Shown here piece by piece: positions 4,172 through 63,348 of a DNA stretch of 64,000 bases (positions are counted from its first letter, which is position 1; the number at the start of each line of letters is the position of its first letter). The position numbers and the translations under genes were made by a program. This DNA comes from Patescibacteria group bacterium (GTDB lineage Bacteria > Patescibacteriota > Microgenomatia > UBA1406), in the NCBI GenBank assembly GCA_041665145.1, contig JBAYJK010000002.1:232339-296338 (forward strand). The letters run 5' to 3'. Under the pieces are notes generated by a model. The model saw only the letters and a program-made list of their open reading frames with translations. It was not told where the DNA came from and ran no database searches.

Positions 4172-4450
4172 TTAAGCTTTCTGCTTCTCTTCTCTCGGTT
4201 TCGCTTCAGTGACCAAAATATTGCGCTCAGTTTCGCCTATTTTCATCGGCTTTCCATTCAGAACTGCAATAGCCTGCTCCGCGAGCTCGGGGGTACTCAT
4301 AGTCACAAAAGCAAACCCTCTCGATTTACCCGAATCACGATACCGAACCAAATTTATCTCGTCAACTTCACCCACCGTCATAAAGACTGTTTTAATATCA
4401 TCTTCTACAGCCCCATACGGAAGATTCCCGACAAATAATCTATTTCCCAT
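4172..4450 (-). CDS. RRM-type RNA-binding protein
   Basis: RNP-2 (LFVGNLPY) and RNP-1 (SRGFAFVTM) motifs are present. I prefer the start at MGNRLFVGNL (4450); the ORF track start is 4459. The 5' end overlaps the stop of the upstream gene. Confidence 0.88.
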   Translation of the reverse strand: MGNRLFVGNLPYGAVEDDIKTVFMTVGEVDEINLVRYRDSGKSRGFAFVTMSTPELAEQAIAVLNGKPMKIGETERNILVTEAKPREEKQKA

Positions 4451-5474
4451 GCATATCACCCCCTTTCTTTGTATGTTTTTTATGTCTCATAAGTCTTATA
4501 AGACTTATGAGACTAACAAGACTAATAAGTCCCATAAGACCCATGAGTCTTATGGGAAAAGCCCAGAATTCAGTAGTTGCGTAAATCTTCTTATCGGCAA
4601 ATTCGAATGTCATGGCAGCTGAGACTGTATACTTACCGAAAAACCAGCCTTTGAATACAGTGCTTACCGGAATCTTGCACCGCTTGCATTCCGGAAATTC
4701 CTCTTGAACCATTAACCTTTGTGAGTTTTTGAGCACATTTGCAGGAAACAGTTTTTTCGTTTCACTTTTGCCTAATGACGAAACGAGTTTAAGAGTTACT
4801 TGTGGTGTTACCATAAATTGTCCGGTGTTGGCAATTTTAACAACCACCGGGACTTCATCATTGCTCTCGACGATGGTGAATGTTTTTCCAAATAGCGATA
4901 ACGAATATCTCGGTATAACTTGCAATTGAGCTATTTTACCTTCGATCGGCATATTTCCTGAGTTAGTAACGCTCACTAAAATATTTGCCCCGATATATGA
5001 CCTCCCCAACCCCGCTGTAGTTTGAGTAACCGGCGGATCTGCCACAAAAAACAACGTATAGTAATAGTCGCCCTCGGGAGCATTTTCCACCGCCCTGATT
5101 TTAAGCAGCGCTTGTGTTTTCTCACGGGATTTGAGTACAAATTTATCTCCCAACCCCATTTGGCTGTTCTCCAAAGAGAATCTGAGCGGTCCTTCCGCTT
5201 TATCCTTAAAAACTCTTCCTCCCTGGTCGTCTGATGGTTCAAAAGAAAGAATGCTTGTGGAAAACACCATAGTATCACCGTTGTTTTTCAAATCAATAGC
5301 CTGCAGCAACGATTTACCCGGCTTAATAACTATCTCTACCTGTGGTGGATAGACGGATACATGGAGTTTTTCGGCATTGGCAGTGGTAGATAGTTGATGG
5401 TAGATAGTTAATAGTAAAATACCCACACAAACGAGCCTCATAACTCTGATTTGTGCGGATCTATTCAATAACAT
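4440..5474 (-). CDS. secreted surface protein with C-terminal membrane anchor, DUF916/DUF3324-like architecture
   Basis: 344 aa. It has an N-terminal signal peptide (…LSTTANA), beta-rich domains and a C-terminal TM followed by a basic tail (RLMRHKKHTKK). Length and layout match ORF 11877..12905. The family call rests on pattern resemblance only. Confidence 0.5.
   Translation of the reverse strand: MLLNRSAQIRVMRLVCVGILLLTIYHQLSTTANAEKLHVSVYPPQVEIVIKPGKSLLQAIDLKNNGDTMVFSTSILSFEPSDDQGGRVFKDKAEGPLRFSLENSQMGLGDKFVLKSREKTQALLKIRAVENAPEGDYYYTLFFVADPPVTQTTAGLGRSYIGANILVSVTNSGNMPIEGKIAQLQVIPRYSLSLFGKTFTIVESNDEVPVVVKIANTGQFMVTPQVTLKLVSSLGKSETKKLFPANVLKNSQRLMVQEEFPECKRCKIPVSTVFKGWFFGKYTVSAAMTFEFADKKIYATTEFWAFPIRLMGLMGLISLVSLISLIRLMRHKKHTKKGGDMHGK
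4484..4513. repeat. 30-nt perfect palindrome inside the C-terminal anchor codons of ORF 4440..5474
   Basis: gtctcataagtcttataagacttatgagac equals its own reverse complement. A second hairpin, cccataagac-ccatga-gtcttatggg, lies about 20 nt further on. Confidence 0.9.
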
Positions 5475-5533
5475 GTCAGTTTGACTATTAACTCTAAACT
5501 ATCAACTCTCAACCCTCAACTATTAACTATCAA

Positions 5534-6295
5534 CTAATACTTAGGTACTGCAATAAAATTAATAACTGTCTGGTAAGTGCCGGTTGCTTGAGCCCCGTCG
5601 ATATTCGCTAGAAATGTAACAGTTGAAATACGGTTTTTCGCGGCTATAGTAGAGGACATGAAGGTAACCGGACTATGTCCGGCTTCACGCGAAGCAAAAG
5701 GACGGTAGTATGTGTTATTTAAAAAATCTGCAGTTACGTCATGTCCTGATGCGTTGTACCCGAATCCCGTCGCAGCAGTTGACGTCCAGACATTCGCACT
5801 GGTTCGAGAACATGCTTGGATCCCTCCGTTACAAGTTGTGTCAGGAATAAAATGTAAGGAAAGCGTCCGGAGAGGATGGTCTTCTATGACTTGGACGTCA
5901 TAGCCACGACTCGGATTAGTAATTGTTACATCTAACGTCGGCAAAGGAGTCGGAAAAGTGTTCGGAATTAATGTCCCGAAATTTATAAGAGTTGATGAAA
6001 TTTCGAATTCAAAAGGCATGGTGGTAAAAATATATTGGAAACCCACTTTTACCACAAATCCCGATGAGGTAAACCGGTCGGCAAATGTTTGTCCGAGTGA
6101 AGTGGTCATGCTGTAATTCGGGGAATCATGCCGACCGCTTCCTATATTAAGGTTGCCGAAAATTATATTATAGTTTGTTGAGTTCATGTTCACCGCATAC
6201 ACTTCAGTTGATAGTTGAGAGTTGAGAGTTAAGAGTAATACGAAGACAATACTTACTCGTATGAGCATGGAGACTAAGTTATTGATTAAATTCAT
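5534..6295 (-). CDS. secreted WxL-domain-like surface protein
   Basis: 253 aa with a signal peptide (…STEVYA). The C-terminal region carries W-containing and terminal motifs (ANVWTSTAATGFGY … GTYQTVINFIAVPKY). These resemble the two WxL-type motifs and parallel the C-terminus of ORF 10409..11854. Confidence 0.45.
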   Translation of the reverse strand: MNLINNLVSMLIRVSIVFVLLLTLNSQLSTEVYAVNMNSTNYNIIFGNLNIGSGRHDSPNYSMTTSLGQTFADRFTSSGFVVKVGFQYIFTTMPFEFEISSTLINFGTLIPNTFPTPLPTLDVTITNPSRGYDVQVIEDHPLRTLSLHFIPDTTCNGGIQACSRTSANVWTSTAATGFGYNASGHDVTADFLNNTYYRPFASREAGHSPVTFMSSTIAAKNRISTVTFLANIDGAQATGTYQTVINFIAVPKY

Positions 6296-6391
6296 GAATT
6301 AAGTATCCGCCCTGCCAACTACTATCTACCATCTACTAACCACTATCAACCATTTACTATCTACTCTAAACTAGAGACTATCAACCCTTAA

Positions 6392-7078
6392 CTAAATCTT
6401 CTCAACATAATCACGAAAATTCTTGACCAAGTCTGCCATATTTTTTATTTTCCGACGAATATACTGCAAATCCAAGTCACCCATAAAATTATCTGCACGT
6501 TCCTTCAAGTCGTCTATTTGGCGGTAAAGTGCTGTTGTCAAAAAAAGTAACGTCTGTTCTTCTTGGTAACCCTTTTGACCTTGCAATTTCTTTTTTGCTT
6601 CCACAAGACGGCTCAGTTCTTCCTTCTGTTGATAGTACTTGCGTTGAATATCACCTAAATACTTTGCAAACGGGGCAATGAACGGTAATGAAAAAACAGG
6701 CAGTAAATCTTTAAGAGATTGGACAGTGCCCATAGTCCCTAGAAAAGCTATGACCAAAAGCAGTGTCAAAACAAAACTGGTACTCGAGTCCAATAAAAGC
6801 GACGTCGCAAATAGTAGAAAATAAAAGAGAAAAAAGAATGGTGATTGAGCTCCTCCGGTTGAGAACACGGTCGAGACTATTATAAAAACAAATACGAGTG
6901 TTTCGATAACATAGAAGTTCTTGATACGGTTGAATATGCCCCGAAATATAAAATAAACAATGAAAATTGCCGCAAGAAACTGAACATCGTAGTTGGCAAG
7001 CGGTGAAAGCGAAAAAAGAACAGCACCTATTGTAACAACAGCAACACCGACCATTTCCCACAAAAGCAATTTCGACAT
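6392..7078 (-). CDS. polytopic membrane protein with C-terminal coiled coil, function unknown
   Basis: 228 aa with about 5 hydrophobic helices followed by a charged, heptad-like tail. I recognise no catalytic motif. Confidence 0.6.
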   Translation of the reverse strand: MSKLLLWEMVGVAVVTIGAVLFSLSPLANYDVQFLAAIFIVYFIFRGIFNRIKNFYVIETLVFVFIIVSTVFSTGGAQSPFFFLFYFLLFATSLLLDSSTSFVLTLLLVIAFLGTMGTVQSLKDLLPVFSLPFIAPFAKYLGDIQRKYYQQKEELSRLVEAKKKLQGQKGYQEEQTLLFLTTALYRQIDDLKERADNFMGDLDLQYIRRKIKNMADLVKNFRDYVEKI

Positions 7079-7188
7079 ATGAATTCAGTATACACAAAAT
7101 TAAGTTACAAGTTAAAAGCCTAAAGTTCTAAGTAATGTGATGCATATAGACCGTGGTATTTGTTTTTTCCGCATGTCATATTCAATAC

Positions 7189-7803
7189 ATGGCGAAAAAA
7201 CAACAAACAGTATTCCACGAGTATTTATCGGAGATACGAAAGCTTCCGAAGAGCATTGTGATACTTTTTACCACTTCCCTCCTGCTCGGGGGAATCGCCA
7301 TCATCGGTTTATTGGTCATACACTCAATAAACCAGAAATTACAAGTTTCCGTAAGCACGAACGATTTTGTCATAACAAAGCCCACAACATCTCCCGTGCG
7401 TTTGTTCGTCGACATCGAAGGTGCAGTTGAAACCCCCGGGGTATACGAAGTTACCGAATCATCACGTTTAGTCGATGCGCTAAAATTGGCCCACGGGCTT
7501 TCTTCCCAGGCTGATCGTAACTATGTTGCTCACACATTTAATCTGGCCAAGAAATTGCAGGATGAAGACAAACTATATATCCCGTTTATCGGAGAAACTC
7601 AAGACAGTGACCAAACTCAGCAAACCACAGTCAACATCAATACAGCAAGCAGAACAGAACTTGAATTATTGCCCGGCATCGGATCGGTTACCACAGAGAA
7701 CATTATTGATCATCGACCCTACGCCGACGTATACGAGCTTGTTACCAAAAAAGTTGTCGGTCAGAAAATTTTTGACCGCATCAAGAACCTCGTAGGCATA
7801 TAA
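7189..7803 (+). CDS. comEA: competence protein ComEA (SLBB + helix-hairpin-helix DNA receptor)
   Basis: N-terminal TM, an SLBB-like segment (VDIEGAVETPGVYEV) and a C-terminal HhH pair (INTASRTELELLPGIGSVTTENIIDHRPY). I prefer the start at MAKKQQ (7189) over the track start at 7153. Confidence 0.9.
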   Translation: MAKKQQTVFHEYLSEIRKLPKSIVILFTTSLLLGGIAIIGLLVIHSINQKLQVSVSTNDFVITKPTTSPVRLFVDIEGAVETPGVYEVTESSRLVDALKLAHGLSSQADRNYVAHTFNLAKKLQDEDKLYIPFIGETQDSDQTQQTTVNINTASRTELELLPGIGSVTTENIIDHRPYADVYELVTKKVVGQKIFDRIKNLVGI

Positions 7804-7806
7804 ACT

Positions 7807-8589
7807 ATGCCGTTTCTTAACTGGGTTACTGAACCGTATTTTAAGTATCTTCCTCAAGAAGAGGCAGCGCTACTTGCCGGCATTGTGTGGGGTCAAAAGA
7901 CCTACCTGACAACAGGAAGTCTTGATTTATTCCGTCAGACTGGTTTATTACATCTCCTTGTTCTATCAGGACAGAATATCACACTCCTCCTCGCATTCTT
8001 TGATCCGCTAACACAATGGGTAAATTTCAGACTTAAACTGATAATTGTCGTCATGGTTGCTGGCTTCTATTGCATAGGTTTTTCTTCTGAGCCATCAATT
8101 GTACGTGCATCGGTAATGGCTATTGTTTCCTCGGGAGTGATCATGTTTGAGCGGCAGACACCGAGTATGTATGTTTTTCTTCTATCTGAGATAGTGCTTC
8201 TTATTTACCAGCCGATGTGGCTCTGGAACATTTCATTCTGGTTATCAACCGCAGCGACGTTTGGCATTATACTTTTATATCCGTCGTTGAGAAGTAAAAA
8301 CTACATACGTAATCAAATCGGACTTACGTTTGCTGCTCAGGTCTTTACAACACCCATAATTCTATTAAACTTCCGACAGTACCCATTACTATCTATATTG
8401 TCTAACCTTTTTGTAACCTGGCTGATCGAGCCCATTATGTTTTTTGGGGTCATATTAAGCTTTGCCGGACATATCGATTCATTCCTGGCAACAGTAATGA
8501 GCTACATCACTCTCGGCGTTGTGCGTATTTTTATTTTAATCGTCCAAGTGAGTTATTTCATAAGTAGTCTACCTATCCTCCGAATATAG
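7807..8589 (+). CDS. comEC: ComEC/Rec2 membrane channel domain (separate ORF)
   Basis: 260-aa polytopic protein carrying the Competence-domain signature region (LLAGIVWGQKTYL…FRQTGLLHLLVLSGQNITLL). It ends at the TAG at 8587-8589. Confidence 0.8.
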   Translation: MPFLNWVTEPYFKYLPQEEAALLAGIVWGQKTYLTTGSLDLFRQTGLLHLLVLSGQNITLLLAFFDPLTQWVNFRLKLIIVVMVAGFYCIGFSSEPSIVRASVMAIVSSGVIMFERQTPSMYVFLLSEIVLLIYQPMWLWNISFWLSTAATFGIILLYPSLRSKNYIRNQIGLTFAAQVFTTPIILLNFRQYPLLSILSNLFVTWLIEPIMFFGVILSFAGHIDSFLATVMSYITLGVVRIFILIVQVSYFISSLPILRI

Positions 8590-8591
8590 GA

Positions 8592-9410
8592 ATGAGAAAA
8601 ACTTTTTTGATCGCATGTGTTATCGGTATATTCACTTCGACTTTTTTGTGTATCGACAACGTCCGTCGATATCAGCCACGAGCCGTGTTTTGCGACATCG
8701 GTCAAGGCGATGGAACCTATATCCGCACATCGGACGGAATAGACGTCCTTGTTGACACAGGGCCAAACGATCGGATAATTACCTGTCTTGAGCATGAACT
8801 ACCCTACTTTGATCGGACAATTGAGGTTATGTTTCTTACTCACGCACAAAAAGATCATTCCGGTGGATTGGCTTCACTTGTAAGAAGCTTCTCCATTAAA
8901 CATATATTTACCGCTCCCGACTTCATCACCATTCCAAGCAATCAATATCAGACACTTATACAAACAATTCCTATTGAATGGCAGACGATCACTCAAGGAG
9001 ACGTACTTAATTTTCCCCGAAATATTATCACCGTTATTTGGCCGCCGGCTTTAACAGATAAAGATGCAGTGAACGCGAAGGAAGTAAATAATAGAGCGTT
9101 GGGACTTTCAATACGGTCCGAAAGCAAACATATTCTTCTGCTCGCTGATTTGGACGCTACTGAAGGCGAACGTGCACTTTCTAACATTTCATCTCCCAAT
9201 ACCATACTGAAAATAAGTCATCACGGCTCACAATACGGCACAAGCAAGAAACTATTATTGTTAGCAGAACCGATGCTTGCAGTGATAAGTGTCGGAAAAA
9301 ACAATTTTTATCATCATCCCCATAAATTAGTAATTGACTTACTGAAAGCCTTAAATATACCGTACAAACGAACAGATAGGGATGGAAGCATAACTATACC
9401 GTTGGAATAA
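8592..9410 (+). CDS. comEC: ComEC-type metallo-beta-lactamase-fold domain protein (separate ORF)
   Basis: 272 aa with an N-terminal TM and MBL-like motifs (DIGQGDGTYI, LTHAQKDHSGG, ISHHGS) typical of the ComEC C-terminal nuclease domain. It starts 2 nt after the previous ORF, in another frame. Confidence 0.8.
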   Translation: MRKTFLIACVIGIFTSTFLCIDNVRRYQPRAVFCDIGQGDGTYIRTSDGIDVLVDTGPNDRIITCLEHELPYFDRTIEVMFLTHAQKDHSGGLASLVRSFSIKHIFTAPDFITIPSNQYQTLIQTIPIEWQTITQGDVLNFPRNIITVIWPPALTDKDAVNAKEVNNRALGLSIRSESKHILLLADLDATEGERALSNISSPNTILKISHHGSQYGTSKKLLLLAEPMLAVISVGKNNFYHHPHKLVIDLLKALNIPYKRTDRDGSITIPLE

Positions 9411-9524
9411 ACTTCCAGTTTTCAATTTACAATTTTCAATCAATTTTTAAGGTTCAGTTTTTAACTGTAACTTCCCGGTATTGAAAACTGAATGAAAATT
9501 GAGAACTATAAATTGAAAATTGAG
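9411..9524. terminator. composite palindrome between convergent comEC-MBL and PaaX-like genes
   Basis: cagttttcaat (9415) and caattttcaat (9431) can pair in nested fashion with attgaaaactg (9479) and attgaaaattg (9512). Confidence 0.45.
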
Positions 9525-10265
9525 TTAAAGGAGTATTTTTCGCATTTCGTCGAATATATCGAACGCCTCGAATCCGATCCATGTTTTACCGACAAGCTCC
9601 TTGGGTAAACCAGGGTCTGTTTTGAGAATATCAAGGTACAGTTCAACCACTTGTTTCATCTTATCTTCTTTTTTGGTTGTGTCTGTTGAAAGCACCTCGT
9701 GCCATTTTTTGAAGATCTTTTTATACTGCTCTTCAAGCTTGCTAATACCCCATACTTTTTCCAGCAAAATTTTCGGGTCACCCAGTACCGGTGTACCCTC
9801 AAACGCTTGCACATATTCTGCTCCCTGCTCATTGTCCGTGATTCTTTTCAACTCCTCGGTGATGGGATGCGGCGTCAGCCAGAACGATCTGTGCCATGGG
9901 CCAAGACCCCAACCGCTTACTTCTCGCCGAAGGCTATCGCGTAACGAGCGTTTACGCTCGGGAATTTCGTATGAAACAATGCGCATTTTTTGATCCCACG
10001 GAAATACAAGAAAACGTACAAACGGAAAAGCAAGTGACAACTCTTTGACACCGTCTTCCGTTATACGAAACACACCCGTGTCTTCTTTTGTGATTACCTT
10101 GTCTGTCAACATAAGCCTGATTGTTCCTCGAGATCTGGGAGAATCTGCCGGCAACGAAAATACATGTTTTACCTCGCTACTGAATATATTGTGACCAGAA
10201 TCTCTCCCCAACAAAAATAGCGTGAGAAGAATTCTTTTTCGCCGTTCTTTTATTGCAGCTTGCAT
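9525..10265 (-). CDS. PaaX-like transcriptional regulator (C-terminal PaaX domain pattern)
   Basis: The motif WDQKMRIVSYEIPERKRSLRDSLRREVSGWGLGPWHRSFWLTP fits the PaaX_C pattern W..W.hV.Y.IPE..R..R..L...L...G. I prefer the start at MQAAIKERRK (10265) over the track start at 10346. Confidence 0.55.
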   Translation of the reverse strand: MQAAIKERRKRILLTLFLLGRDSGHNIFSSEVKHVFSLPADSPRSRGTIRLMLTDKVITKEDTGVFRITEDGVKELSLAFPFVRFLVFPWDQKMRIVSYEIPERKRSLRDSLRREVSGWGLGPWHRSFWLTPHPITEELKRITDNEQGAEYVQAFEGTPVLGDPKILLEKVWGISKLEEQYKKIFKKWHEVLSTDTTKKEDKMKQVVELYLDILKTDPGLPKELVGKTWIGFEAFDIFDEMRKILL

Positions 10266-10408
10266 AATCGCACTTATAATAGCAGACGTGAAAAAAATGT
10301 CAACACCAGTAGTGATTGAGCAATGTACTTGACAAATAAAAAGCATTGTACATAATGAATTAAGCGCAGTATTTTTATATTAGAAATCATTAATTAACAT
10401 TACATTAA

Positions 10409-11854
10409 ATGAAATCTGTTAAAGGGTTCTCTTCTTATTTTGTTGCAATCGTCTTTTTATTTGTTACGGTCGCGTTTCAACTAGTAAAGCCGGCACAGGC
10501 AGCTGTCCCATTCACCCAGGCATATAGTACGTTGACAAACTCAAGATTCTCATTTAAAGGATCTCTGGCAAGTGGAATTTCAACGGGCAATGCGGTTGCA
10601 ACTATTGCAGGGTCGGGTTTTTCTGACAACAACACACAAAACCTGTTTAATGGAGATGTGATCTGTCTAAATGGTAATACCGGCAAAGGTTGTATCGGAG
10701 GAACGACTTTCACTGTTAATAACGTGTTGAATGCAACCTCACTTGCCTTTACCCCTACTCTGACTGGGTCAGCAATGGCCGGAGATTCTGTCGTTTCCAC
10801 TCAGAGCGGCCAGATGACCATTTCGTTCAGACCGACTACAAATATTGCTTCGGGTTCAAAAGTCATTCTTTTGATTCCGGCAACATCAGTGGCAGCGCAT
10901 CATAATGATGGTATTCCAGACAGTAGCGGATTTGATTCTGCAGAGCTACCTGCCGACTTGCTTGCAGGAACGTGTGCAGCAAATGTTTGTTTCAGCCCCA
11001 GCGGGTTCACTGTCTCTGCGGTTGCTCTTGCCGCTGCAATAACGAATCACACCATTACTATTACAACAAGCGCAGCATTGAATAACTCTACAACCTATTC
11101 GTTCACCCTCGGTCATGCATCTAATGCCAAATTACGGTTTCTCAACCCATCACCCGCTGGCACTACTCACACCCGCGGCGTCTCCGATACGTACTCGTTT
11201 AATCTTACAACCAAGGATTCGGGAGAAACAATAACGTATGATGAGACGAATATGAAGGTAGCTCCTATTGACGGCGTGTTCGTTTCGGCAAATGTAGAAC
11301 TCAGTATTTCATATAGTATTAATGACGGTTCGAACGGGTATTCCGGCAACATTAACTCAGCCGTTACCATAACACAGTGTCCCGGAACATGGACAACAAC
11401 CTCAGCAACCACCGCAACAGCCGTACCGTTCGGTTCCATCTTGAACTTTGATTCTTTTTATCGGGCTGCGCAATCACACTACGTGGTAACCAACGCGACA
11501 AATGGTTTTGATCTGACGGTAAAATATGATAATCCGCTTACCAGCGGTGCAAATCAAATTGCAGACGGTGGGTGTGATACTTCGCCTTCATGTACGACCA
11601 CCAGTCAACAGGCATGGAGCACATCAACATTCAACGGTTTCGGATATACCCTCGGAAACATTACCGGTTCTGAAGCGGCGTGGACAGGTGATACTTACAG
11701 AATTTTCGGCTCAACGCCGGTTACCATTATGAGCAAAGCGACTCCATCAACCGGATCACGCATCGCTATGTGTTACCAACTTTCGGTAGATGCGACACAA
11801 CCAAACGGATTGTACTATAACAAGTTGACGTACGTCGCTACGCCGAAGTTTTAA
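10409..11854 (+). CDS. secreted WxL-domain-like surface protein (long paralogue)
   Basis: 481 aa with a signal peptide ending AQA and a Thr/Ser/Ala-rich beta region. The C-terminal motifs QQAWSTSTFNGFGY and GLYYNKLTYVATPKF parallel those of ORF 5534..6295. Confidence 0.45.
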   Translation: MKSVKGFSSYFVAIVFLFVTVAFQLVKPAQAAVPFTQAYSTLTNSRFSFKGSLASGISTGNAVATIAGSGFSDNNTQNLFNGDVICLNGNTGKGCIGGTTFTVNNVLNATSLAFTPTLTGSAMAGDSVVSTQSGQMTISFRPTTNIASGSKVILLIPATSVAAHHNDGIPDSSGFDSAELPADLLAGTCAANVCFSPSGFTVSAVALAAAITNHTITITTSAALNNSTTYSFTLGHASNAKLRFLNPSPAGTTHTRGVSDTYSFNLTTKDSGETITYDETNMKVAPIDGVFVSANVELSISYSINDGSNGYSGNINSAVTITQCPGTWTTTSATTATAVPFGSILNFDSFYRAAQSHYVVTNATNGFDLTVKYDNPLTSGANQIADGGCDTSPSCTTTSQQAWSTSTFNGFGYTLGNITGSEAAWTGDTYRIFGSTPVTIMSKATPSTGSRIAMCYQLSVDATQPNGLYYNKLTYVATPKF

Positions 11855-11876
11855 TAATTTAAAAACAAATAAGAAT

Positions 11877-12905
11877 ATGAGAATATTAGGTAGCATAGCA
11901 AAAAATGTAGCTAAATTAGCCCTATATTCCTATATTCCTATATTCCTATATTCTTTTGTATCTACTGTACATGCTCAAGCAAATTTTTCCATAACCGCGT
12001 TTCCGGCAATAATCGATCAGAGAGTCGAGCCCAATCAACAAACACGGCTACTTGTTCAATTCAAGAATAATTCTGATAAAACAATTATCGGATCAGTAAA
12101 GGTGGCGAACTACACTATCAAGAACAAAGAAGGCGATATTATGTTGGTCGATGATCCGAACGTTAAGCTGAAATATGCAGCCGCATCATGGATAACTCCC
12201 GATGTTGATCAGATTGCAATACCAGCCAATAACTATGTAGCGGTCAATCTCACGGTGAAAACACCCGCAGAACTTAATACCTGTGGGAACTATGCAATCG
12301 CCTATTTCGAATACGATCAAGGACTCCAACCCGGCGCATCGGCTATTACACAATCATCTTCAACACTTGCCGCAAAGATTGGATCGCTTATAAACTTAAG
12401 CACAGTAAGTAAGAGTTGCGTTGAGAAAGTTACTGTTTCGAGCTTTAAGTATCCGGGTTTTCTTGAATTCGGTCCGGTAAAAGTTGACTTTGATCTTTTG
12501 AATTCGGGAAATGTACACGCACAGCCTATGGGAAAACTTGTATTGAGAGATATGCTGAATAATGTTGTTGAAGAAGTGAAACTAAAGGATCAACGCATAT
12601 TCCCGGAGACAGCCAAAGCATATTCAGGCAAGATCGGACCCCAATGGCTATTGGGTCGTTTTGCCATCGAATTGAAAGCCGTATACGGAGAGAATAACAC
12701 CCCACTTACACATACCGCTTACTTATGGATAATCCCATGGCGGCTTGTTGTCGTAGTGCTTCTCGCGCTCTTGATAGTTGCAATAATACTGAGGAGTATA
12801 TTCGGCAAAGTTGTACATCGTGAAGAAGAGCTGGAAACTAAGCTCAAAGAGGAAGAAAAAGAGATTGATGAGCTCAAGAAAATACTTCGTGGAAAAAAAG
12901 AGTAA
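11877..12905 (+). CDS. secreted surface protein with C-terminal membrane anchor, DUF916/DUF3324-like architecture
   Basis: 342 aa. It has a signal peptide (…VSTVHA), a DUF916-like N-domain (FSITAFPAIIDQRVEPNQ…FKNNSDK…AASWITPD), a C-terminal TM (LVVVVLLALLIVAIIL) and a charged coiled tail. Confidence 0.5.
   Translation: MRILGSIAKNVAKLALYSYIPIFLYSFVSTVHAQANFSITAFPAIIDQRVEPNQQTRLLVQFKNNSDKTIIGSVKVANYTIKNKEGDIMLVDDPNVKLKYAAASWITPDVDQIAIPANNYVAVNLTVKTPAELNTCGNYAIAYFEYDQGLQPGASAITQSSSTLAAKIGSLINLSTVSKSCVEKVTVSSFKYPGFLEFGPVKVDFDLLNSGNVHAQPMGKLVLRDMLNNVVEEVKLKDQRIFPETAKAYSGKIGPQWLLGRFAIELKAVYGENNTPLTHTAYLWIIPWRLVVVVLLALLIVAIILRSIFGKVVHREEELETKLKEEEKEIDELKKILRGKKE
11921..11952 (+). repeat. octamer tandem repeat CCTATATT x4 in signal-peptide codons
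   Basis: Four perfect copies at 11921-11952 encode LYSYIPIFLYS within the signal peptide of ORF 11877..12905. Confidence 0.95.
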
Positions 12906-13821
12906 ATTCTTTATATTTCTTATAGGAATTGCCGGCAGTCTCGGTGGCATCTATACAGCGAAGTTCCCCATTACTCAACACAGGTCCCCTGAAGCTCGTC
13001 AAGTGCTCGCTGAAGTAGATGTATCAGCTTCAGTAGGTTATGCCCCAGTTGCGTATACATTGTTCGGGTACACCTCTTCACTTGCCCTCGTTAAGCTTGA
13101 GGGTGTAGGTGTTTCTGAGGAAACTCACGCACGATCAGATGGTTATTTTGAATTCACAAACTTTTATGCCCCGCGAAACAGCAATGAATTCTGTTTGACA
13201 CCGATTGACACTGACCAGCTTGTCGGCACACCTTTGTGCATTGTCGCCCCCGTAGACGTGCAAGGTAAGCGATTTGGGCCCTATTTGCTCTCACCGACGA
13301 TCTCAGTAGCCACTGGCAATCCCCAAACCGGGCAATCCGATGCAGTATCAGGCAAAACGATACCCGGAACACTTGTTACCATCAATACCTTTGATGATCC
13401 GGATCGTCAAACACTCGCACTTGTTCCACATGCCTACGCAGCACGAAGCAAAAAAATTACAGCAACATCAAATGCAGACGGAAGTTTTAGTACACAGATA
13501 ACAGCTGAACAATCCGGAAAGATACGGGTTTTCGCGCAGTCTGTTTTTGAATCTCAAAAAACACCAAAAAGTAACACACTAACACTCACTATTTTTAGCG
13601 CATGGTTCACCGCTTTCATGCTTATGCTGGGATTATTGAGGAACCTGATCAATTGGAACATAATTATATTATTGCAGGTTAGTGTTCTGTTGTTCATTCT
13701 CTATAAACGGATCCATATGCATCATGTCTACCGACATAAGCAACGCGCATTGTTGTTACGCAGACAAAATCTTCCAATGATCGAGCCCGAACGGGAATTG
13801 GTGAAGATTAATAGAACTTAA
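12868..13821 (+). CDS. membrane protein with carboxypeptidase-regulatory-like (Ig-like) domains
   Basis: N-terminal TM (FFIFLIGIAGSLGG). SDGYFEFTNF and ADGSFSTQI motifs are typical of CarboxypepD_reg-like beta-sandwiches. C-terminal TMs are present. The ATG at 12868 (or the GTG at 12889) is preferred to the track start at 12811. Confidence 0.55.
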   Translation: MSSRKYFVEKKSKFFIFLIGIAGSLGGIYTAKFPITQHRSPEARQVLAEVDVSASVGYAPVAYTLFGYTSSLALVKLEGVGVSEETHARSDGYFEFTNFYAPRNSNEFCLTPIDTDQLVGTPLCIVAPVDVQGKRFGPYLLSPTISVATGNPQTGQSDAVSGKTIPGTLVTINTFDDPDRQTLALVPHAYAARSKKITATSNADGSFSTQITAEQSGKIRVFAQSVFESQKTPKSNTLTLTIFSAWFTAFMLMLGLLRNLINWNIIILLQVSVLLFILYKRIHMHHVYRHKQRALLLRRQNLPMIEPERELVKINRT

Positions 13822-14230
13822 GTCGCACACCTTCTGTTGCTTTAGTTCCGTTTACCAGTGCTTCTACGAAATAATCCCCTTTTAGGCTTGTGTAAGCGTC
13901 AAACACAGCTCTACCATACGTATCAGTGGTGGATTGGACTGACTCCATGGTGAGTTCTTTGGTATAGTCGAGTACTACTTGTTTGCCCGGAACTCCCCTT
14001 CCCTGATTGTTCAGTAGAAAAACTGTGATACGTATTCGGTCATTGTTGTTGGCAAGCGCTTGCAATGGGCTAAGAAAGATATACGAATTATCTACTGAAA
14101 ATGAAGCCTCAGTTCCTACACCGCTTGCACGGCTTTGGAACAAGAAACGTACATTCAGCGAGAAGCTTAAGAGTAAAAGTAGTAGCAGCAATCCAAGCAA
14201 CATCACACTCGACTTACGAAGTAGTTCCAT
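13808..14230 (-). CDS. small secreted/anchored protein with bacterial Ig-like (Big_1/invasin-like) domain
   Basis: 140 aa with an N-terminal hydrophobic leader (LLGLLLLLLLL). The motif GRGVPGKQVVL…TDTYGRAVFDAYTS is typical of Big-type Ig folds. Confidence 0.5.
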   Translation of the reverse strand: MELLRKSSVMLLGLLLLLLLLSFSLNVRFLFQSRASGVGTEASFSVDNSYIFLSPLQALANNNDRIRITVFLLNNQGRGVPGKQVVLDYTKELTMESVQSTTDTYGRAVFDAYTSLKGDYFVEALVNGTKATEGVRLKFY

Positions 14231-14691: not shown

Positions 14692-15189
14692 ATGGATAAC
14701 CAGTATAATTTGTATAATTTCGAGTTCAAATTTGCAGACTATCTCCAAGCCAAGAAATATGGTCAGGTTACTGTCAAAAGCTACATCAGTGACTTGCATT
14801 TATTTCTTGAGTGGCTAGCTCAAGTGATAGACATGCAGTCAATAAGGCTTTCTGTCAGCCCCGAGCTTGCAGTGGTACAGTTAATGACTGTTCCAACGCT
14901 CCATGGATATTTTTCAGATCTGATTGCACGAAAAGCGCCAAATAAAACAGTTCTGAGACGGTTGAGTGGCTTACAGTTATTTTGCACGTTCTGTATCGAT
15001 CAACAATGGATAACCGTGAATCCTATCAAAGAACTCCGAAAAGCGCTTTACCCGGCCCGTCAAAACAATCCGTTTTCTGTCATGTCTGAGTTCAAAACCT
15101 TTCTACAATCTGAGCACACTTCAACCTCAACAATAAAAAATTATCTGGCCGATATCAGAGAGCTTATTAAAATTACAAGTTCAATCTAA
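14692..15189 (+). CDS. tyrosine-recombinase core-binding (phage-integrase SAM-like N-terminal) domain protein, no catalytic domain
   Basis: 165 aa. Residues 10-115 follow the XerC/D CB-domain pattern (F..YL…TVKSYISDLHLFLEWL … LRRLSGLQLFCTFCIDQQWITVNP). The last 35 aa start a second CB domain (FKTFLQSEHTSTSTIKNYLADIRELI) and then hit a TAA. Confidence 0.7.
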   Translation: MDNQYNLYNFEFKFADYLQAKKYGQVTVKSYISDLHLFLEWLAQVIDMQSIRLSVSPELAVVQLMTVPTLHGYFSDLIARKAPNKTVLRRLSGLQLFCTFCIDQQWITVNPIKELRKALYPARQNNPFSVMSEFKTFLQSEHTSTSTIKNYLADIRELIKITSSI

Positions 15190-15372: not shown

Positions 15373-18300
15373 ATGACAGAGAACCTCTTTTCGCCAGAGA
15401 AAGTAAGCAACTATATCGCTGCATTGCGACAAAGTGGTAATTCTGAGGCTACAATTAAACGAAAACTGTCGTCCGTATCTAAATTTGCTCAATGGGCGCT
15501 ACAAAAAGGTATAATTACAAGCGAAGAACTTAAGCATTTGGAGTCTGAATCTGCTAAACTCCGTTCCGAGTTCGCACCTCAGCAAACCCATGTTCAGCCT
15601 CAACACGAACCAAAGCCTTTTGAGAAAGCCCAAAACCTGAAAAAGTTTTTATCGCCTCAACAGTATTTTCTTGTTACACGGCGCCATTTGCTCGCAACTG
15701 TCGGAACAATTGTGCTTTTGTTCGGTTTTGCTGTTGGATTGTATAATCAATTTTTCAGCAAGGCATCAATTAATCTTGCTTACCCATCGAGCCCGACCAG
15801 AGCGGGAAGAATTTTGAACTTTCAAGGTTTTCTTACCGACAGTTCCGCGACCCCGATTACCGCTCCCATCAATATGCGCTTCAGATTGTATGACGACCCT
15901 TCTGCTGGAACAATGCTCTATGATTCAGGAACCTGCTCGATTACACCTGACATAGCCGGAGGAGTTGTGAACGTTATGGTAGGTACGAATACGCCTGCTG
16001 GGTACAGCTGTGGCGCTGAAATTGACACTGATACATTTACTAGAAACACGAACGTATATTTAGGTGTGACTGTTGGAGGTGATCCAGAGATGGGTCCGCG
16101 TCAACAAGTAGCAAATGTAGGTTACGCAATAAACTCAGAAACACTACAAGGCTTGCCACCAGGGACAGATAAATCCACCATTCCCTTTATCAATCAATTT
16201 GGTAACTTGCTAATTGCCACGTCTACCCCCGGTATACGTTCAACACTGTCAAGTGAGACCTTCCAGATCTCAAGCGCCAACTCACTCACTCTCATGTCAG
16301 CCGGTGCTGGTGACATAACACTGAATGCAACTCAGAGCGGTGCCATTAAGTTCATAACAGCCAACTCTTCAGGTAATCAGATACAAGCGTCAGACGTTAA
16401 CCTTACTTCAGGTAGCTTGTATTATGGTTACGTTGGTAATGACCTTGGTGGATACAACTTACTGCAATTGCAAAGCGGTTCTGTGCCTGAAGACCAATTC
16501 ACCGTAAGTTCTTCTGGTCAAGGGTACTTTGCCGGAAATGTTGGAGTAGGAACTACCAATCCCTCAGCCCGTTTACATGTTGCAGGTAACCTTAAGGTGG
16601 ACAGCTATGCTACTGTTTCAGCAGGACTTAACGTAGGATATTCCACAATGTTACCGGGCGGAGGAAATGGTGTATTCTCAGGACGTGTCGGCATCGGCAT
16701 CTCGAATCCGACATACCTGTTGGATGTCCAGGGAGGTGCGGGTGTTGTTGGACAATTCAGCGGACGGGTAATTGGTGCGGGAGGACTTAATTCTAACGAG
16801 TTCGTAACCGTATCTCAATTAACCGCAGCTTCTCTCTGGCAGGAAAATTCAGGAGCACTCTCCCCTGTTCACATAACCAATGATTTGCTTATTGGCCGTA
16901 TTGCCACGCCTTCAGCCGCAACACACGATTACTTCCAAGTATTCGGAACCGGAGCAACTGCCGGGGATGCGTCTTCTTCTGGTATTTTAACACTTGGTAC
17001 AAACCGATCATCTGGACTTATTCATACCGAACGCATGCTTCCTCTTGTTCTAGGCAATGCAACCACCGGGTCAGTCCAGTTATCACCTAAAGGCACGACG
17101 GGATTGTTTGTTGCAGGAAATGGTAATGTCGGAGTGGGAACGATTGATCCGGCAGCTTCACTTGACGTAAACGGATTGATAAAAGTGCTCGGGACTGCGG
17201 CAGGAGGAATACAATTCGGAACCACAGGACAAGGTCAAATTTACCGAAACGGGTCATCCGGAGATCTGTACTTTACACCCCAAGCGGGGCACAACTTTTT
17301 AGTAGATAGCGGCAATGTAGGAATAGGAACAACCACACCAGGTAGTCCATTACAAGTTAATGGCTCAGCCGCCCTCGGGTACTCTGCTGCAACCGTCGGA
17401 CCGGCAAACGGACTTGCTGTTTCGGGAAATGTAGGAATAGGAACAACAAGTCCCGCTCAAAAATTGAACGTCGTGGGAAACATACAAGTCGAGGATGCAA
17501 ATAACAGGTATATTGGCTTTGCAAATGGTACCGGAACCTTTTACAGAGGGATGTATTCCAGTACTCTCACTTCGGGATTCGCGCTTCGCCTCATTACATC
17601 CGCTTCAGGCAATACTGACCCATTTATAATTCTTGGTTCCAGTGCCGGAGGTGTGACAAACGCGATGACGGTTAACGTGTTGACGGGAAACGTAGGTATC
17701 GGAACAACTGCTCCCACAGCTAAATTACAAGTTGTGGGTGATTTAAAAGTCGACTCGTATGCAACTGTTTCAGCAGGTCTTGCTGTTGGGTATTCATCTG
17801 TGGTTGCGGGCGGAGGAAATGGTGTATTCTCGGGAAGAATCGGCATCGGTACCTCTACCCCAGCCTATCTTCTCGACGTTTCAGGAGGGACAGGAATTGT
17901 CGGGCAATTTAGCGGCAGGGTAATTGGAGCGAACGGAATCAACTCAAATGAATTTGTAACCGTATCCCAATTGACCGCTAATTCATTGTGGCAAGAGAAT
18001 TTGGGTGCGCTCTCCCCTGTCCACATAACCGATGATCTGCTGATCGGCCGCATCGCCACACCTTCAGCTGCAACACAGGATTACTTCCAAGTATTCGGAA
18101 CGGGTACAACTGCAGGAGACGCATCTTCTTCCGGAATTTTGACTCTTGGGACCAATAGAGCTTCTGGAGTTATTGGTACCGCACGCATGCTTCCTCTGGT
18201 ACTTGGAAGTTCAACTACCGGCTCAGTTCAATTGTCACCAAAGGGTACGACGGGATTGTTTGTAGATGGTACGGGAAATGTGGGAGCGGGAACAAGCGCA

Positions 18301-21300
18301 CCACAAGACAAACTTGATGTTGCCGGCGCCATCAGAGTAACAACCAACACTGCTTTTTCAGCAAATGCCGGAGCAAGGTTTTATCGCCAATCTGATCTCG
18401 GGACGACGATTCAGGGTGTTACGGGCTCGACTAACGATTTTTCTCTTGTTACACCAGCGGGCCAGAGACTCATAGATAATCCAACAGGAACGAATAATTT
18501 AATACTTATACCCGTTGCAGCAGGCAATGTCGGCGTCGGCACCACTAGTCCAGTTGCACAACTAGATTTATACTCGAACGGCGCACGATACATCAGAGCG
18601 AAAAGCACCGTTGCCGACCTTGAAGTTGTCAGCGACAATAGCACAAACCCCTTACTGTATGTAAAAGGAACCGGCACCGCCGATCTCGTGAATATATATG
18701 ATAACACCACAAATGTTTTCACTATTCGTGACGGCGGGAATGTGGGAATTGGAGTAAGCAACCCAAGTTCTTTTAAATTGGAAGTTGCCGGAAATATCGG
18801 ACCTGAGGCACATAACACCCGCAGCCTCGGCTCATCTGCCCGATATTTCTTAAACGGGTACATTTCGAACATCTTCGCCGGTGCAACAGGCGTACAAGGC
18901 TTCTGGCAACGGTATGGACAAGCAGTTTCTCCGGCAAACATAACCGACGATCTGCTTATCGGAAACATCGCTACTCCATCTGCGGCAACAACAAATTACT
19001 TCCAAATATTTGGAACAGGTGCAAATGAAGGTGACGCATCTTCTTCCGGTATCTTGACTCTTGGAACCAATAGAACTTCAGGGATTATTCATACGGAGCG
19101 CATGCTTCCATTGGTGTTGGGAAGTTCAACTACCGGCTCAGTTCAATTGTCACCAAAAGGTACGACGGGATTGTTTGTAGATGGTACGGGAAATGTGGGA
19201 GTGGGAACTGTCTCGCCGATTGGAAAATTACAAATTGTAGGCGATGAAGTCAGAGTCGGAACAGCCGGAACAGTCGATTATGCAGCAGGCGACGGCGACT
19301 TGTACATTCAAGATGTATTAGAAGTTGACGGGACTCTTTTTGGGACAGAAATCAACCGAGGGTTATCAATAACAACGAACTTCGGTCGAGATACAACCGG
19401 ATTAGCCGAAGTACAAGCAGGAGTTACTAATAGTGTCACAGGATATGGGATGTTCACCGTTTATGGAAACGGTACAGGAGCAGCACCGGGACCATACGCA
19501 GACTTCAGCTTTCCTGGAACTACGTACGCCAAAATCGCTACATCAGGAACCACAAGTCTTGCCTTAATGTCAGGCGGCAATGTTGGTATAGGAACAACGA
19601 GTCCGATAACAGCTCTTCATTTTGGTGTCGCAGCAGGAACATTCGCAGCAAGCGGTTTGTCTTTTGGCGACGGTGACACGGGTTTCTATGAAAGTTCGGA
19701 TGATAATTTCATTTTCCGCGCAGCAGGAACTGACAGAATGACGTTCAATGGCGGTTCCGGATTCTGGAATATTCTTGGAACAACGACAGGTGGAGTTGGT
19801 ATACAAGCTGCGGCAGGAAGTGCCACAGTCCCGGTATATGCATTCGGCGATGACAGTAATACCGGTATAGGTCACGCGGGAGCTGACATTCTATCTCTAA
19901 TAGCAGGTGGCACGAATGTATTGAATGTGACTGCAGGAAATGTGGGTATCGGAACTACAAATCCAGCAAGCAACTTACATGTTGCAGTAGCCGGATCTTC
20001 TATTTTAACTCTTGAACGGGTTGATGCATCTGTTTCAGCTAATGATCCTGTCGGAAAACTTCAGTTTTATGCACATGACAGCTCTACGACAACCAATTTC
20101 ATTGTTGCAGACATTGAAGCACAAGCGACAAACACTATTGGCACCGATATCAATCCGGGAAGACTTATTTTCAGAACAACTCCAACAACAATTACAGCAA
20201 CACCAATCGAAAGAATGCGAATAAATGAAGATGGAAATGTGGGTATCGGAATCACAACCCCCGCGGCAAAACTTGACATTAACGGCAATCTTCAGGTTGG
20301 ATCATATGCCTCTGTTTCTGCCGGTCTCGCTGTTGGGTATTCATCTATGGTAACGGGCGGAGGAAATGGTGTGTTCTCAGGTAGGATCGGTATTGGTACC
20401 ACTACCCCAGCCTATCTTCTCGACGTTTCAGGAGGGACAGGAATTGTCGGACGGTTCAGTGGCCGTGTCGTTGGAGGTGAAGCAATAAGCGCAAATGAGT
20501 TTACTACGCTCGGGCAGATAGCCGCCGGTGCGGGCCAATATTGGCAGAGGTTATCCGGAGTTCTCTCCCCAACTTTTATTACCGATGATATGATTGTTGG
20601 ACGGGTTTCTACACCGTCAGCCGCAACGGATAATTACTACCAAATCATTGGATCTGGCACAAACGCGGGAGATGCATCATCTTCCGGAATTTTGACTCTT
20701 GGGACCAATAGGACATCTGGGATTATCCATACCGAACGTATGCTTCCTCTAATTTTAGGAAGCACAACTACCGGATCAATCCAATTGTCACCGAAAGGAC
20801 TTGCCGGATTATTTGTTGATCAGTTTGGAAACGTGGGAATCGGAACAACAAGTCCCGGTGCAACTTTAGATGTTGTAGGTAATCTCCGTGTTACCAATGC
20901 CTCTGTAACACCCTTACAATTCGGACCCGCTACAAATCTGGCAACCGACAATAGCTATATTCTCGTAAACAACCGTGCCCGATTTGGATACAATGGAACT
21001 TCCCAAGCGATTGCTATAGATGATAATGGTTCAAACAAGCACTTTATGATCTCCAATGGAGGAGCAGAAAGAATGCGAATTGACAGCCTTAACGGTAATG
21101 TAGGAATCGGAATAACCAATCCGACAGCCAAACTTCACGTCGCCGGAAACTTGAAAGTTGATTCTTACGCCACTGTCTCCGCTTCTCTTTCAGTTGGAAC
21201 ATTTAACGCTCCTGTAGGACCGGGAAACGCTGTGTTTTCGGGAAACGTGGGAATCGGAACAAGTGCGCCCGCTGCACTTCTCGCCATAGTACCCCCTTCC

Positions 21301-33472: not shown

Positions 33473-33500
33473 GTAAGGGCGCGGCGTGACGCGCCCGTCT
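33473..33500. repeat. REP-like hairpin R1 just after the LamG stop
   Basis: GTAA-GGGCGCG-gcgtga-CGCGCCC-GTCT, a 7-bp GC stem with a 6-nt loop. It lies 4 nt after the stop at 33469 and upstream of the rayT-like ATG at 33510. Confidence 0.6.
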
Positions 33501-33509
33501 TGCACAAAT

Positions 33510-57941: not shown

Positions 57942-58023
57942 GCTGGAATTTATTATATACTTCTTACCAACTTTCACACAATCGAAACTATGATTGCCAA
58001 AACAGACGTGGTGCGCGGCACGT

Positions 58024-63341: not shown

Positions 63342-63348
63342 ATCATCA

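Follow-up and report, generated by a model that had tools for sequence, protein, structure and literature searches.

One of the questions raised by bacteria of the candidate phyla radiation (CPR), which are unable to synthesise nucleotides and whose way of life is taken to be attachment to a host and import of DNA, concerns the surface structures on which such a life depends. To our knowledge, type IV pili alone have until now been tied to DNA import in this group. The question takes a concrete form in a stretch of 64,000 nucleotides (the window) from a Patescibacteria group bacterium of the Microgenomatia (UBA1406; GenBank assembly GCA_041665145.1, contig JBAYJK010000002.1, positions 232,339 to 296,338), where two gene pairs for exported proteins lie on either side of the DNA-uptake genes comEA and comEC. 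What do the four proteins build, and what does their position have to do with DNA uptake? To the first question the answer, held with good though not full confidence, is that the region represents the Pam pilus locus of the CPR in a divergent form proper to the Microgenomatia, the pilus being one that would be assembled by chaperones through donor-strand exchange. The pilus type itself is not new. What goes beyond the preprint that described it (bioRxiv 10.64898/2026.03.03.709456) is (a) that the chaperones are homologues of the WxLIP/DUF916 proteins and (b) that the embedding of the DNA-uptake genes is conserved. A second, newly discovered type of pilus clustered with comEA and comEC across many Microgenomatia provides a testable link between attachment and DNA import for a large group of uncultured bacteria.

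Subunits and membrane-anchored chaperones

The Pam pilus was described in Ca. Mycosynbacter amalyticus, a parasite of the Saccharimonadia whose filaments were studied by cryo-electron microscopy (cryo-EM; bioRxiv 10.64898/2026.03.03.709456). Its pilins are PamA, PamB, PamE and PamT. PamA and PamB are composed of an N-terminal sandwich, a linker that forms the donor strand and a truncated immunoglobulin (Ig) C-terminal domain; they have paired cysteines, and the donor strand is their most conserved part. PamT is the tip subunit and has the C-terminal domain only. PamC and PamD are PapD-like chaperones with a C-terminal transmembrane (TM) helix, the anchor PamR resembles RbmA, an usher is lacking, and the pam operons consistently have a 'tail fibre-like protein' co-localised with them. 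Language-model searches in the same study returned PamA homologues in the Microgenomatia (Roizmanbacteria).

In the window the corresponding genes are arranged in two cassettes, each with the subunit gene first and the gene for a membrane-anchored partner second. The minus-strand cassette consists of the short pilin (5534-6295, 253 aa), a PamT-like protein with a signal peptide, a conserved N-terminal stretch of ~65 aa and a Pam-type C-terminal pilin domain at residues 102-253, and of its partner, chaperone A (4440-5474, 344 aa; public gene calls start at Met12 and give 333 aa). On the plus strand are the long pilin (10409-11854, 481 aa), which has a PamA-like architecture of signal peptide, N-terminal beta-rich domain, linker (~283-304) and Pam pilin domain (337-481), and chaperone B (11877-12905, 342 aa). 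When all open reading frames (ORFs) of the window were scanned with the profile hidden Markov models (HMMs) of each subunit and partner family, exactly two subunits and two partners were recovered. The first-pass annotation had described the four ORFs with their strands and order, the hydrophobic signal segments at their N-termini, the TM segment and charged tail of the partners and the C-terminal motifs of the subunits (...INFIAVPKY in the 253-aa protein, ...LTYVATPKF in the 481-aa protein), and all of these are present. The resemblance of the pairs is also real homology. The subunits share a C-terminal domain formed by their last ~150 residues (hhalign 99.7%, E 3e-27; BLASTP E 5e-13 over the last ~130 aa), and the two partner families are full-length homologues over 294 columns that include both domains and the TM helix (hhalign 99.8%, E 7e-30), with a pairwise BLASTP of chaperone A against chaperone B reaching E 2e-4 only. 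Judged from their sequences, the two gene pairs are ancient paralogues, a matter of true homology rather than of chance.

In chaperone A a signal peptide is followed by two beta-sandwich domains, recognised by homology, by a TM helix near the C-terminus (~304-330) and by a basic tail; chaperone B likewise has a signal peptide, two beta-sandwich domains and a TM helix, with a long charged helix at 288-341. An AlphaFold model of chaperone B (pLDDT 84) contains the two sandwich domains and the helix 288-341, together with a low-confidence loop at 152-163 that is followed by a conserved amphipathic strand. When this model was compared with the Protein Data Bank (PDB) by Foldseek, the three best matches were to the WxLIP protein of E. 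faecium (9i25, 9i1y; E 4e-12 to 2e-11), both free and bound to 'long WxL', and the alignment to the full-length WxLIP structures spans 247 columns. Next came the chaperones of chaperone-usher systems, namely CfaA (E 1e-9), CsuC, EcpB, Caf1M, CupB2 and YadV, which span E 1e-9 to 5e-7 and all have a probability of 1.00; matches to RbmA were weaker, with an rmsd of ~15. At the level of sequence, chaperone B passes the Pfam gathering cutoff of PF06030 (WxLIP_PGBD, the former DUF916; 28.8 bits vs 27.3, E 1.3e-6), a profile matched also by 9 of 15 relatives. None of the 36 members of the chaperone A family gave a direct Pfam match, but the family is homologous to that of chaperone B over its full length. 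No sequence match to PF11797 (DUF3324) was seen in chaperone B or its relatives. The partners are therefore WxLIP/DUF916 relatives, as their initial description as DUF916-like had anticipated, and they also have the fold of donor-strand chaperones. Model, structural matches, hydrophobic segments and the homology of A to B together describe PapD/FimC-like chaperones with a C-terminal TM helix, as in the Pam system.

What, then, are the subunits? The NCBIfam release of June 2026 contains two relevant Pam models, the equivalog NF058579 for PamT (241 positions, curated cutoff 240 bits) and NF058581 (148 positions, cutoff 55 bits). The short pilin matches the former with 41.9 bits (E 7.7e-11), far below the cutoff; all nine of its orthologues match as well, again below cutoff (28-52 bits, E 1e-6 to 7e-14), six of them collinearly over the whole profile. 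NF058581 gives 25.3 bits (E 1.3e-5) with the short pilin and 23.1 bits (E 6.4e-5) with the long pilin, and in both cases the alignment covers all 148 positions and ends at the C-terminus; it is matched, always below cutoff, by 18 of 43 long-pilin relatives and by 9/9 short-pilin orthologues. The length and architecture of the short pilin fit the single-domain PamT, and the protein has a conserved Cys155/Cys162 pair and a C-terminal ...A-x-P-x-Y/F motif. Paired conserved cysteines are present in the long pilin too. The AlphaFold model of this second protein (pLDDT 89.8) is all-beta and falls into two regions, between which lies the most conserved block of the family, P286-I304, an invariant inter-domain linker that is mostly unpaired in the monomer model; the linker block (~283-304) is a candidate for the donor strand. 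Sequence comparison thus suggests a remote but consistent homology of the subunits to the Pam pilins, a relationship that falls short of membership in the curated families.

The long-pilin family comprises 2,255 representatives at 50% clustering in an exhaustive profile search (E<=1e-3), and the 150 matches listed are all close relatives. The window protein is identical to one from a metagenome-assembled genome labelled 'Patescibacteria group bacterium'. Named homologues come almost entirely from Patescibacteria, Roizmanbacteria, Beckwithbacteria and Microgenomates, a distribution restricted to the CPR apart from two contigs binned as 'Gammaproteobacteria' and one as 'Nitrosocosmicus'. Since there are more than 2,000 clusters at 50% identity, a correct family name affects many genomes; loci of this Pam-like/comE kind are currently annotated as hypothetical proteins. 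As to the exceptions, the CPR-specific cluster was found deposited in metagenome-assembled genomes of 'uncultured Gammaproteobacteria' (L003 and L006; CAZLAJ010000007.1 and CAZWRH010000050.1), and a further protein, P0131, carries the label 'Candidatus Nitrosocosmicus'. These labels are probably binning errors.

A mechanism can be proposed by homology with the model of the M. amalyticus Pam pilus, with chaperone-usher pili and with WxL-WxLIP complexes. Two subunits exported by the Sec pathway would share an incomplete Ig-like C-terminal pilin domain, with the 253-aa protein, essentially this domain alone, as the proposed tip and the 481-aa protein, which adds the N-terminal beta-rich domain and the conserved linker strand, as the proposed shaft. 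Each would be received by the chaperone encoded after it, a protein of two Ig-like domains held at the membrane by its C-terminal helix, and a beta-strand of the chaperone would cap the open groove of the subunit. Donor-strand exchange would follow, in which the linker strand of the next subunit displaces the strand of the chaperone, and the predicted product is a thin non-retractile fibre made with neither an usher nor an ATPase. The TM-anchored protein encoded downstream of chaperone B, here called p336, could serve as the anchor at the base. Pilus and giant fibre might then attach the cell to a host or to debris, from which released DNA would be imported by ComEA and ComEC as a source of nucleotides, with expression presumably driven from neighbouring promoters and the PaaX-like protein controlling the long-pilin operon. 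That the proteins form a fibre at all is inferred from this comparison, and its use together with ComEA and ComEC would be a further step.

Placed beside the M. amalyticus system, the window would have in common with it the CPR-restricted, Sec-exported pilins with a common truncated-Ig C-terminal domain and paired cysteines, the combination of a short subunit made of that domain only with a longer subunit of N-domain, linker and C-domain, the PapD-like two-domain chaperones with a C-terminal TM anchor, the lack of an usher or ATPase, and a giant tail-fibre-like gene nearby. It differs in that the similarity is remote and below cutoff, in having a single short pilin and a single long one, each served by a chaperone of its own, in two cassettes, and in its neighbours, which are comEA, split comEC, the PaaX-like gene and a Big_1 gene instead of ATP synthase, CorB and MFS genes. 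There is also no recognisable PamR in the window, and the Pam filaments have been imaged whereas the window system is read from genes. With the chaperone-usher pili (class 5 CFA/I with CfaA-CfaB/E, archaic Csu, Caf1M-Caf1, Pap/Fim) the system shares the two-Ig chaperone fold and would share a division into tip and shaft subunits and donor-strand complementation and exchange. Those pili, however, are built at an outer membrane through an usher by soluble chaperones, whereas here there is neither outer membrane nor usher (Pfam and NCBIfam searches of the cluster returned no usher-like gene) and the chaperone is tethered to the membrane; the putative donor strand is an internal linker in place of an N-terminal extension, and the shaft subunit is a two-domain protein.

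Embedding of the DNA-uptake genes

Between the two cassettes lie a gene for a membrane protein, comEA, the split comEC and the PaaX-like gene, a set that the first-pass annotation had named correctly, as Pfam matches and a 228-aa ORF confirm. The DNA receptor ComEA, with SLBB and HHH_3 domains (PF12836 E 1.6e-12, PF10531 E 5e-7), is encoded at 7153-7803 on the plus strand, with a probable start at the ATG at 7189. It is followed on the same strand by a gene for the ComEC channel domain alone (7807-8589, 260 aa; PF03772 E 9e-38), a protein with neither the OB/DUF4131 domain nor a fused metallo-beta-lactamase (MBL) domain. An MBL protein akin to the C-terminal nuclease domain of ComEC (8592-9410, plus strand; PF00753, PF12706) is encoded by a separate gene that starts 2 bp after the channel gene. 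Absence of the ComEC-MBL fusion in the CPR is already known (PMC6744442), and because the split is kept in every relative inspected the split comEC of the window is not a pseudogene. The PaaX-like putative transcription regulator is encoded on the minus strand (9525-10346, probable start near 10265; PaaX_M E 1e-17, PaaX_C E 1e-7). Between comEA and the short pilin is a gene (6392-7078, minus strand) whose 228-aa product is a multi-pass membrane protein that ends in a coiled-coil-like tail. Pfam and NCBIfam searches gave no family match for this protein, which may belong to the pilus system as a so far uncharacterised component; it adjoins the short pilin, immediately upstream of it, in 74 of 80 metagenome loci, and lies beside it also in L001, L004, L005 and L009-L016.

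How general is this arrangement? A consensus gene order was derived by tblastn of the window proteins against eight reference-genome loci. It runs from the membrane protein through short pilin, chaperone A, comEA, comEC, MBL and the oppositely oriented PaaX-like gene, and continues with long pilin, chaperone B, p336, the oppositely oriented Big_1 gene, the small SAM-like protein and the giant fibre. To this was added a metagenome scan seeded on the short pilin, which returned 416 relatives; locus counts refer to the best 80 of 416, of which 26 are fully flanked, with at least 5 kb on both sides. All sampled loci, whether from genomes, assemblies or metagenomes, belong to one class, and the metagenome loci are not phylogenetically independent. 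Within this sample comEA and comEC lie inside or beside the pilus genes in 14/14 genome and assembly loci, and they are present in 25/26 fully flanked metagenome loci, the exception being L056, whose contiguous pilus operon has no comE gene in its reach. In the metagenome loci the closest comE gene lies at a median of 1.3 kb from the short pilin, that is, one chaperone gene away. Similarity to the DUF916 family and a conserved arrangement, the two things on which the first-pass annotation had staked its proposal, were therefore both found, and the association with comEA and comEC that it proposed is kept in relatives.

Its picture of two inverted cassettes that point outward from a competence core is true of the window and of L005, but not of the group. 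Among the reference loci the first cassette shares the strand of comEA in L001, L003 and L004 and is inverted only in the window and L005. Among the metagenome loci comEA directly follows chaperone A on the same strand in 52 of the 59 that are informative; four of the others are convergent and three divergent like the window, and these three also retain a leuS, M16 or RRM gene beside the chaperone. The inverted two-cassette layout, present in a minority of loci, is a lineage-specific rearrangement.

Long contigs that carry divergent homologues (25-38% identity) extend the comparison, with comE genes kept inside or beside the pilus genes in varied orders and with varied flanks. For instance, on the P0084 contig and in L009 (Beckwithbacteria) a leuS-comEA-comEC-MBL block is divergent from a contiguous pilus operon, and L013 is similar, with an M16 peptidase nearby in place of leuS. 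In L010-L012 and L014-L016 the flanks are secE-nusG-rplK, and in L011 the chaperone A ORF overlaps the start of comEC by 8 bp. The pair of small SAM-like protein and giant fibre is conserved at the cluster end in L010-L016. The linkage of pilus and comE genes thus spans at least four gene orders and at least three flanking contexts, and the pilus genes form a very strongly conserved Microgenomatia supercluster with comEA, comEC, MBL and, usually, PaaX-like genes. Because the linkage survives repeated rearrangement, and because one locus has overlapping ORFs, a functional coupling of pilus and DNA uptake is plausible.

With regard to regulation, the PaaX-like gene is divergent from the long-pilin operon. 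It lies between the long pilin and comEC in all loci in which comE genes come between the cassettes, and the loci with a contiguous operon lack it. Back-to-back promoter-like sites are found at 10276-10356 on both strands, with TTGACA-16-TATTAT on the minus strand facing the PaaX-like gene and TTGACA-16-CATAAT on the plus strand facing the long pilin; these are consensus matches only, and both are among four sites with the top score of 11/12 between 4000 and 15500. Their position would suit an arrangement in which the PaaX-like protein divergently controls the long-pilin operon.

A different element accompanies comEA. In loci whose proteins are 30-40% identical, a conserved block of ~22 nt, TTTGTCGCTTATAATCCATTGA, lies 45-65 nt upstream of comEA (L001:6159-6174, L010:7833-7848(-), L014:11041-11056, L015:11049-11064, L016:11067-11082), with partial dyad symmetry in L015 (TATAGTC-N4-GACTAT). 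The block occurs once per locus and goes with comEA rather than with the upstream gene, being present also in L010, where that gene encodes RNase HII. The window has no good copy, only a degenerate one at ~7141-7162. No terminator-like hairpin with a T-run was seen in the spacers between chaperone A and comEA (83-124 bp). The block is probably comEA's own promoter or operator. It was never found upstream of the pilin genes, and the idea of an operator common to the comEA and pilin promoters was rejected on the grounds that it occurs once per locus, upstream of comEA alone.

Weighing the readings

The homology of the chaperones to WxLIP raises the question of whether the region is instead a surface complex of the WxL/WxLIP type, the Csc clusters of Lactobacillales and Bacillales (PF13731, PF06030, PF11797; 9i25, 9i1y), as the first-pass annotation had supposed in calling the subunits WxL-like. 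The subunits would then stay unpolymerised, each bound 1:1 to its membrane-anchored WxLIP-like partner by strand insertion, and together they would make a static adhesion platform like that of the Firmicutes. Both the PF06030 score above cutoff and the E. faecium WxLIP structures at the head of the Foldseek ranking, free and long-WxL-bound, are what this account expects, and so is the three-part logic common to the two systems, in which a small subunit of one domain and a large one that carries the shared domain C-terminally go with a TM-anchored two-Ig protein. The strict pairing of one subunit with one partner fits a stable heterodimer, and in the Firmicute clusters, too, a strand of the partner is predicted to complete the beta-sandwich of the subunit. 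The subunits themselves, however, tell against it. Pfam WxL (PF13731) was matched at E<=1 by none of 45 proteins (the two window subunits and 43 long-pilin relatives), the W-x-L motif is absent from the subunits, which have one conserved Trp in the C-terminal domain, and no WxL chain appeared in PDB profile searches or among the top 50 Foldseek matches of the full-length long-pilin model. They match Pam pilin models instead, and the conserved inter-domain linker of the long pilin looks like a donor strand. No protein of the cluster contains an LPxTG motif, DUF3324 is without sequence detection, the host is a CPR bacterium rather than a member of the Firmicutes, and WxL proteins are described as a peptidoglycan-bound platform, not a polymer. 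By these searches, every one of which was negative at the level of sequence, the subunits are not WxL-family proteins. Of the three profiles proposed for searching, PF06030 was matched, and PF13731 and PF11797 gave no sequence match. As an account of the whole region a WxL/WxLIP complex is distinctly unlikely, though the two readings may be compatible if both systems share ancestry.

A more serious rival accepts the pilus and denies the coupling. In this case an ancestral leuS-comEA-comEC block lay beside the pilus operon and was shuffled by local inversions without being separated from it, so that the adjacency is inherited gene order with no functional meaning. The loci L009, L013 and P0084, in which the pilus operon is uninterrupted and the comE genes stand next to it as a divergent block of their own (accompanied by leuS in two cases), are in keeping with such a history, as are the recurrence of leuS and the M16 peptidase near several loci including the window, the promoter-like block that comEA does not share with the pilin genes, the origin of every sampled locus from one class, and the Saccharimonadia pam neighbourhoods, which do not list comE. 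Simple inheritance has to contend with an adjacency that outlasts at least four gene orders and a full change of flank from leuS/M16 to secE-nusG-rplK, and that is kept at 25-45% protein identity. The comE genes, moreover, mostly lie between the two cassettes and are co-directional right after the chaperone in 52/59 loci, and the chaperone and comEC ORFs overlap in L011. Inherited synteny within one class is a serious rival to functional coupling, and its probability is judged to be somewhat below even.

Several points weigh against the preferred reading of a Pam-type pilus that works with DNA uptake. Every match to a Pam model is under its curated cutoff (41.9 vs 240 bits; 23-25 vs 55 bits), and there is no NCBIfam match to any Pam chaperone or PamR model. 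The full-length long-pilin model yields diffuse, multi-domain Foldseek matches with TM-scores <0.3 (integrins, MSCRAMMs, CfaE, CsuE, BcpA, TasA) that do not identify the domain fold, and PDB sequence searches with all four family profiles returned nothing significant (matches to EcpB, at E 1.9, and to PLK2, at E 0.08, were set aside). The Microgenomatia system is known here from its genes alone, and its filament is putative and unproven. A donor-strand-exchange pilus cannot retract, so a direct role in DNA capture is mechanistically awkward. Type IV pili, the accepted partner of ComEA and ComEC, are already carried by CPR genomes (PMC6744442). The neighbourhood reported for pam in Saccharimonadia lists ATP synthase and transporters, not comE (bioRxiv 10.64898/2026.03.03.709456). 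The block upstream of comEA, absent from the pilin promoters, means that comEA may be transcribed independently, and the locus counts carry the shared class and the phylogenetic dependence described above. In comparison with type IV competence pili or the Com pseudopilus, the window likewise has genes for a putative surface fibre in linkage with those of the DNA receptor ComEA and the channel ComEC, but the fibre is of an unrelated type, with no prepilin peptidase, PilB/PilT ATPase or retraction.

The homology of WxLIP to the Pam chaperones nevertheless has consequences of its own. It connects a CPR pilus with the WxL clusters that serve virulence and adhesion in Enterococcus, Listeria and lactobacilli, and it points to strand complementation as a mechanism that the two systems may have in common. 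The Pam preprint mentions no WxL, DUF916, competence, ComEA or ComEC, and in the library searched no paper was found that links WxL to donor-strand systems or a Pam-type pilus to competence genes. A bolder combination would make the Microgenomatia pilus a dedicated non-type-IV fibre for DNA acquisition, capturing host cells or DNA for ComEA and ComEC together with the giant fibre, and at the same time derive CPR Pam and Firmicute WxL/WxLIP, as two branches, from an ancient chaperone-subunit system that single-membrane bacteria ran without an usher. Taken as a whole this is speculative and on the unlikely side; if the two did share one ancient origin, WxL proteins may also assemble by donor-strand exchange.

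Neighbouring surface and secretion genes

Downstream of chaperone B are two genes that had been read as further Ig-like surface proteins, a description that holds for the second. The first, p336 (12868-13821, plus strand), is a membrane-anchored surface protein with C-terminal TM segment(s), placed in the cluster by synteny; its family gives weak beta-sandwich matches alone (CarboxypepD_reg and Big_6, in relatives), and its position directly downstream of chaperone B is constant in the inspected loci. It is a candidate for the base anchor, occupying the position of a PamR-type anchor/terminator. The notion that it is a third chaperone paralogue was ruled out (hhalign probability 9.9%). The second is a small Big_1 protein of the invasin/intimin Ig type (13808-14230, minus strand; PF02369, 43.9 bits vs a gathering cutoff of 34.9) with an N-terminal hydrophobic segment, kept at the same cluster position across relatives. 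In a search against Rfam, no part of the window matched an RNA family.

At the cluster's end, a giant membrane-anchored repeat fibre of 4,282 aa (15373-28221, plus strand) is preceded by a small protein that has an integrase SAM-like domain (14692-15189, plus strand; Phage_int_SAM_1) and is composed of two SAM-like segments. In the cytoplasmic N-terminus of the fibre a segment resembles the core-binding, SAM-like domain found in tyrosine integrases; a TM helix comes next, and the protein contains repeats of the GNVGIGTTxP type. A DNA-binding-type domain on the inner side of a giant surface fibre would lie here beside DNA-uptake genes.

Genes for further large surface proteins follow on the plus strand. 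A 1,747-aa protein (28226-33469) has six Laminin_G_3 domains and DUF2341, with a match below cutoff to the NCBIfam 'TafC family fimbrial protein' (E 1e-62), and a 737-aa protein (34549-36762) contains Peptidase_S74, the domain that acts as intramolecular chaperone in tail fibres, and may be the counterpart of the 'tail fibre-like protein' placed beside pam operons in the Pam preprint. Between them is an ORF resembling REP-associated tyrosine/IS200-family Y1 transposases (33486-34163; NF047646, E 5e-16, below cutoff). Further along, the segment 48001-50000 has a strongly negative AT skew (-0.277) and lies inside a minus-strand ORF of 1,357 aa (47402-51475) that has no Pfam match. Close to the end of the window a VirD4/TrwB-like type IV secretion coupling protein (55767-58097, minus strand) is followed by two large ORFs with no Pfam matches (58024-61278 and 61260-63395), and this may be part of the type IV secretion system of the monoderm type that has been described for Patescibacteria.

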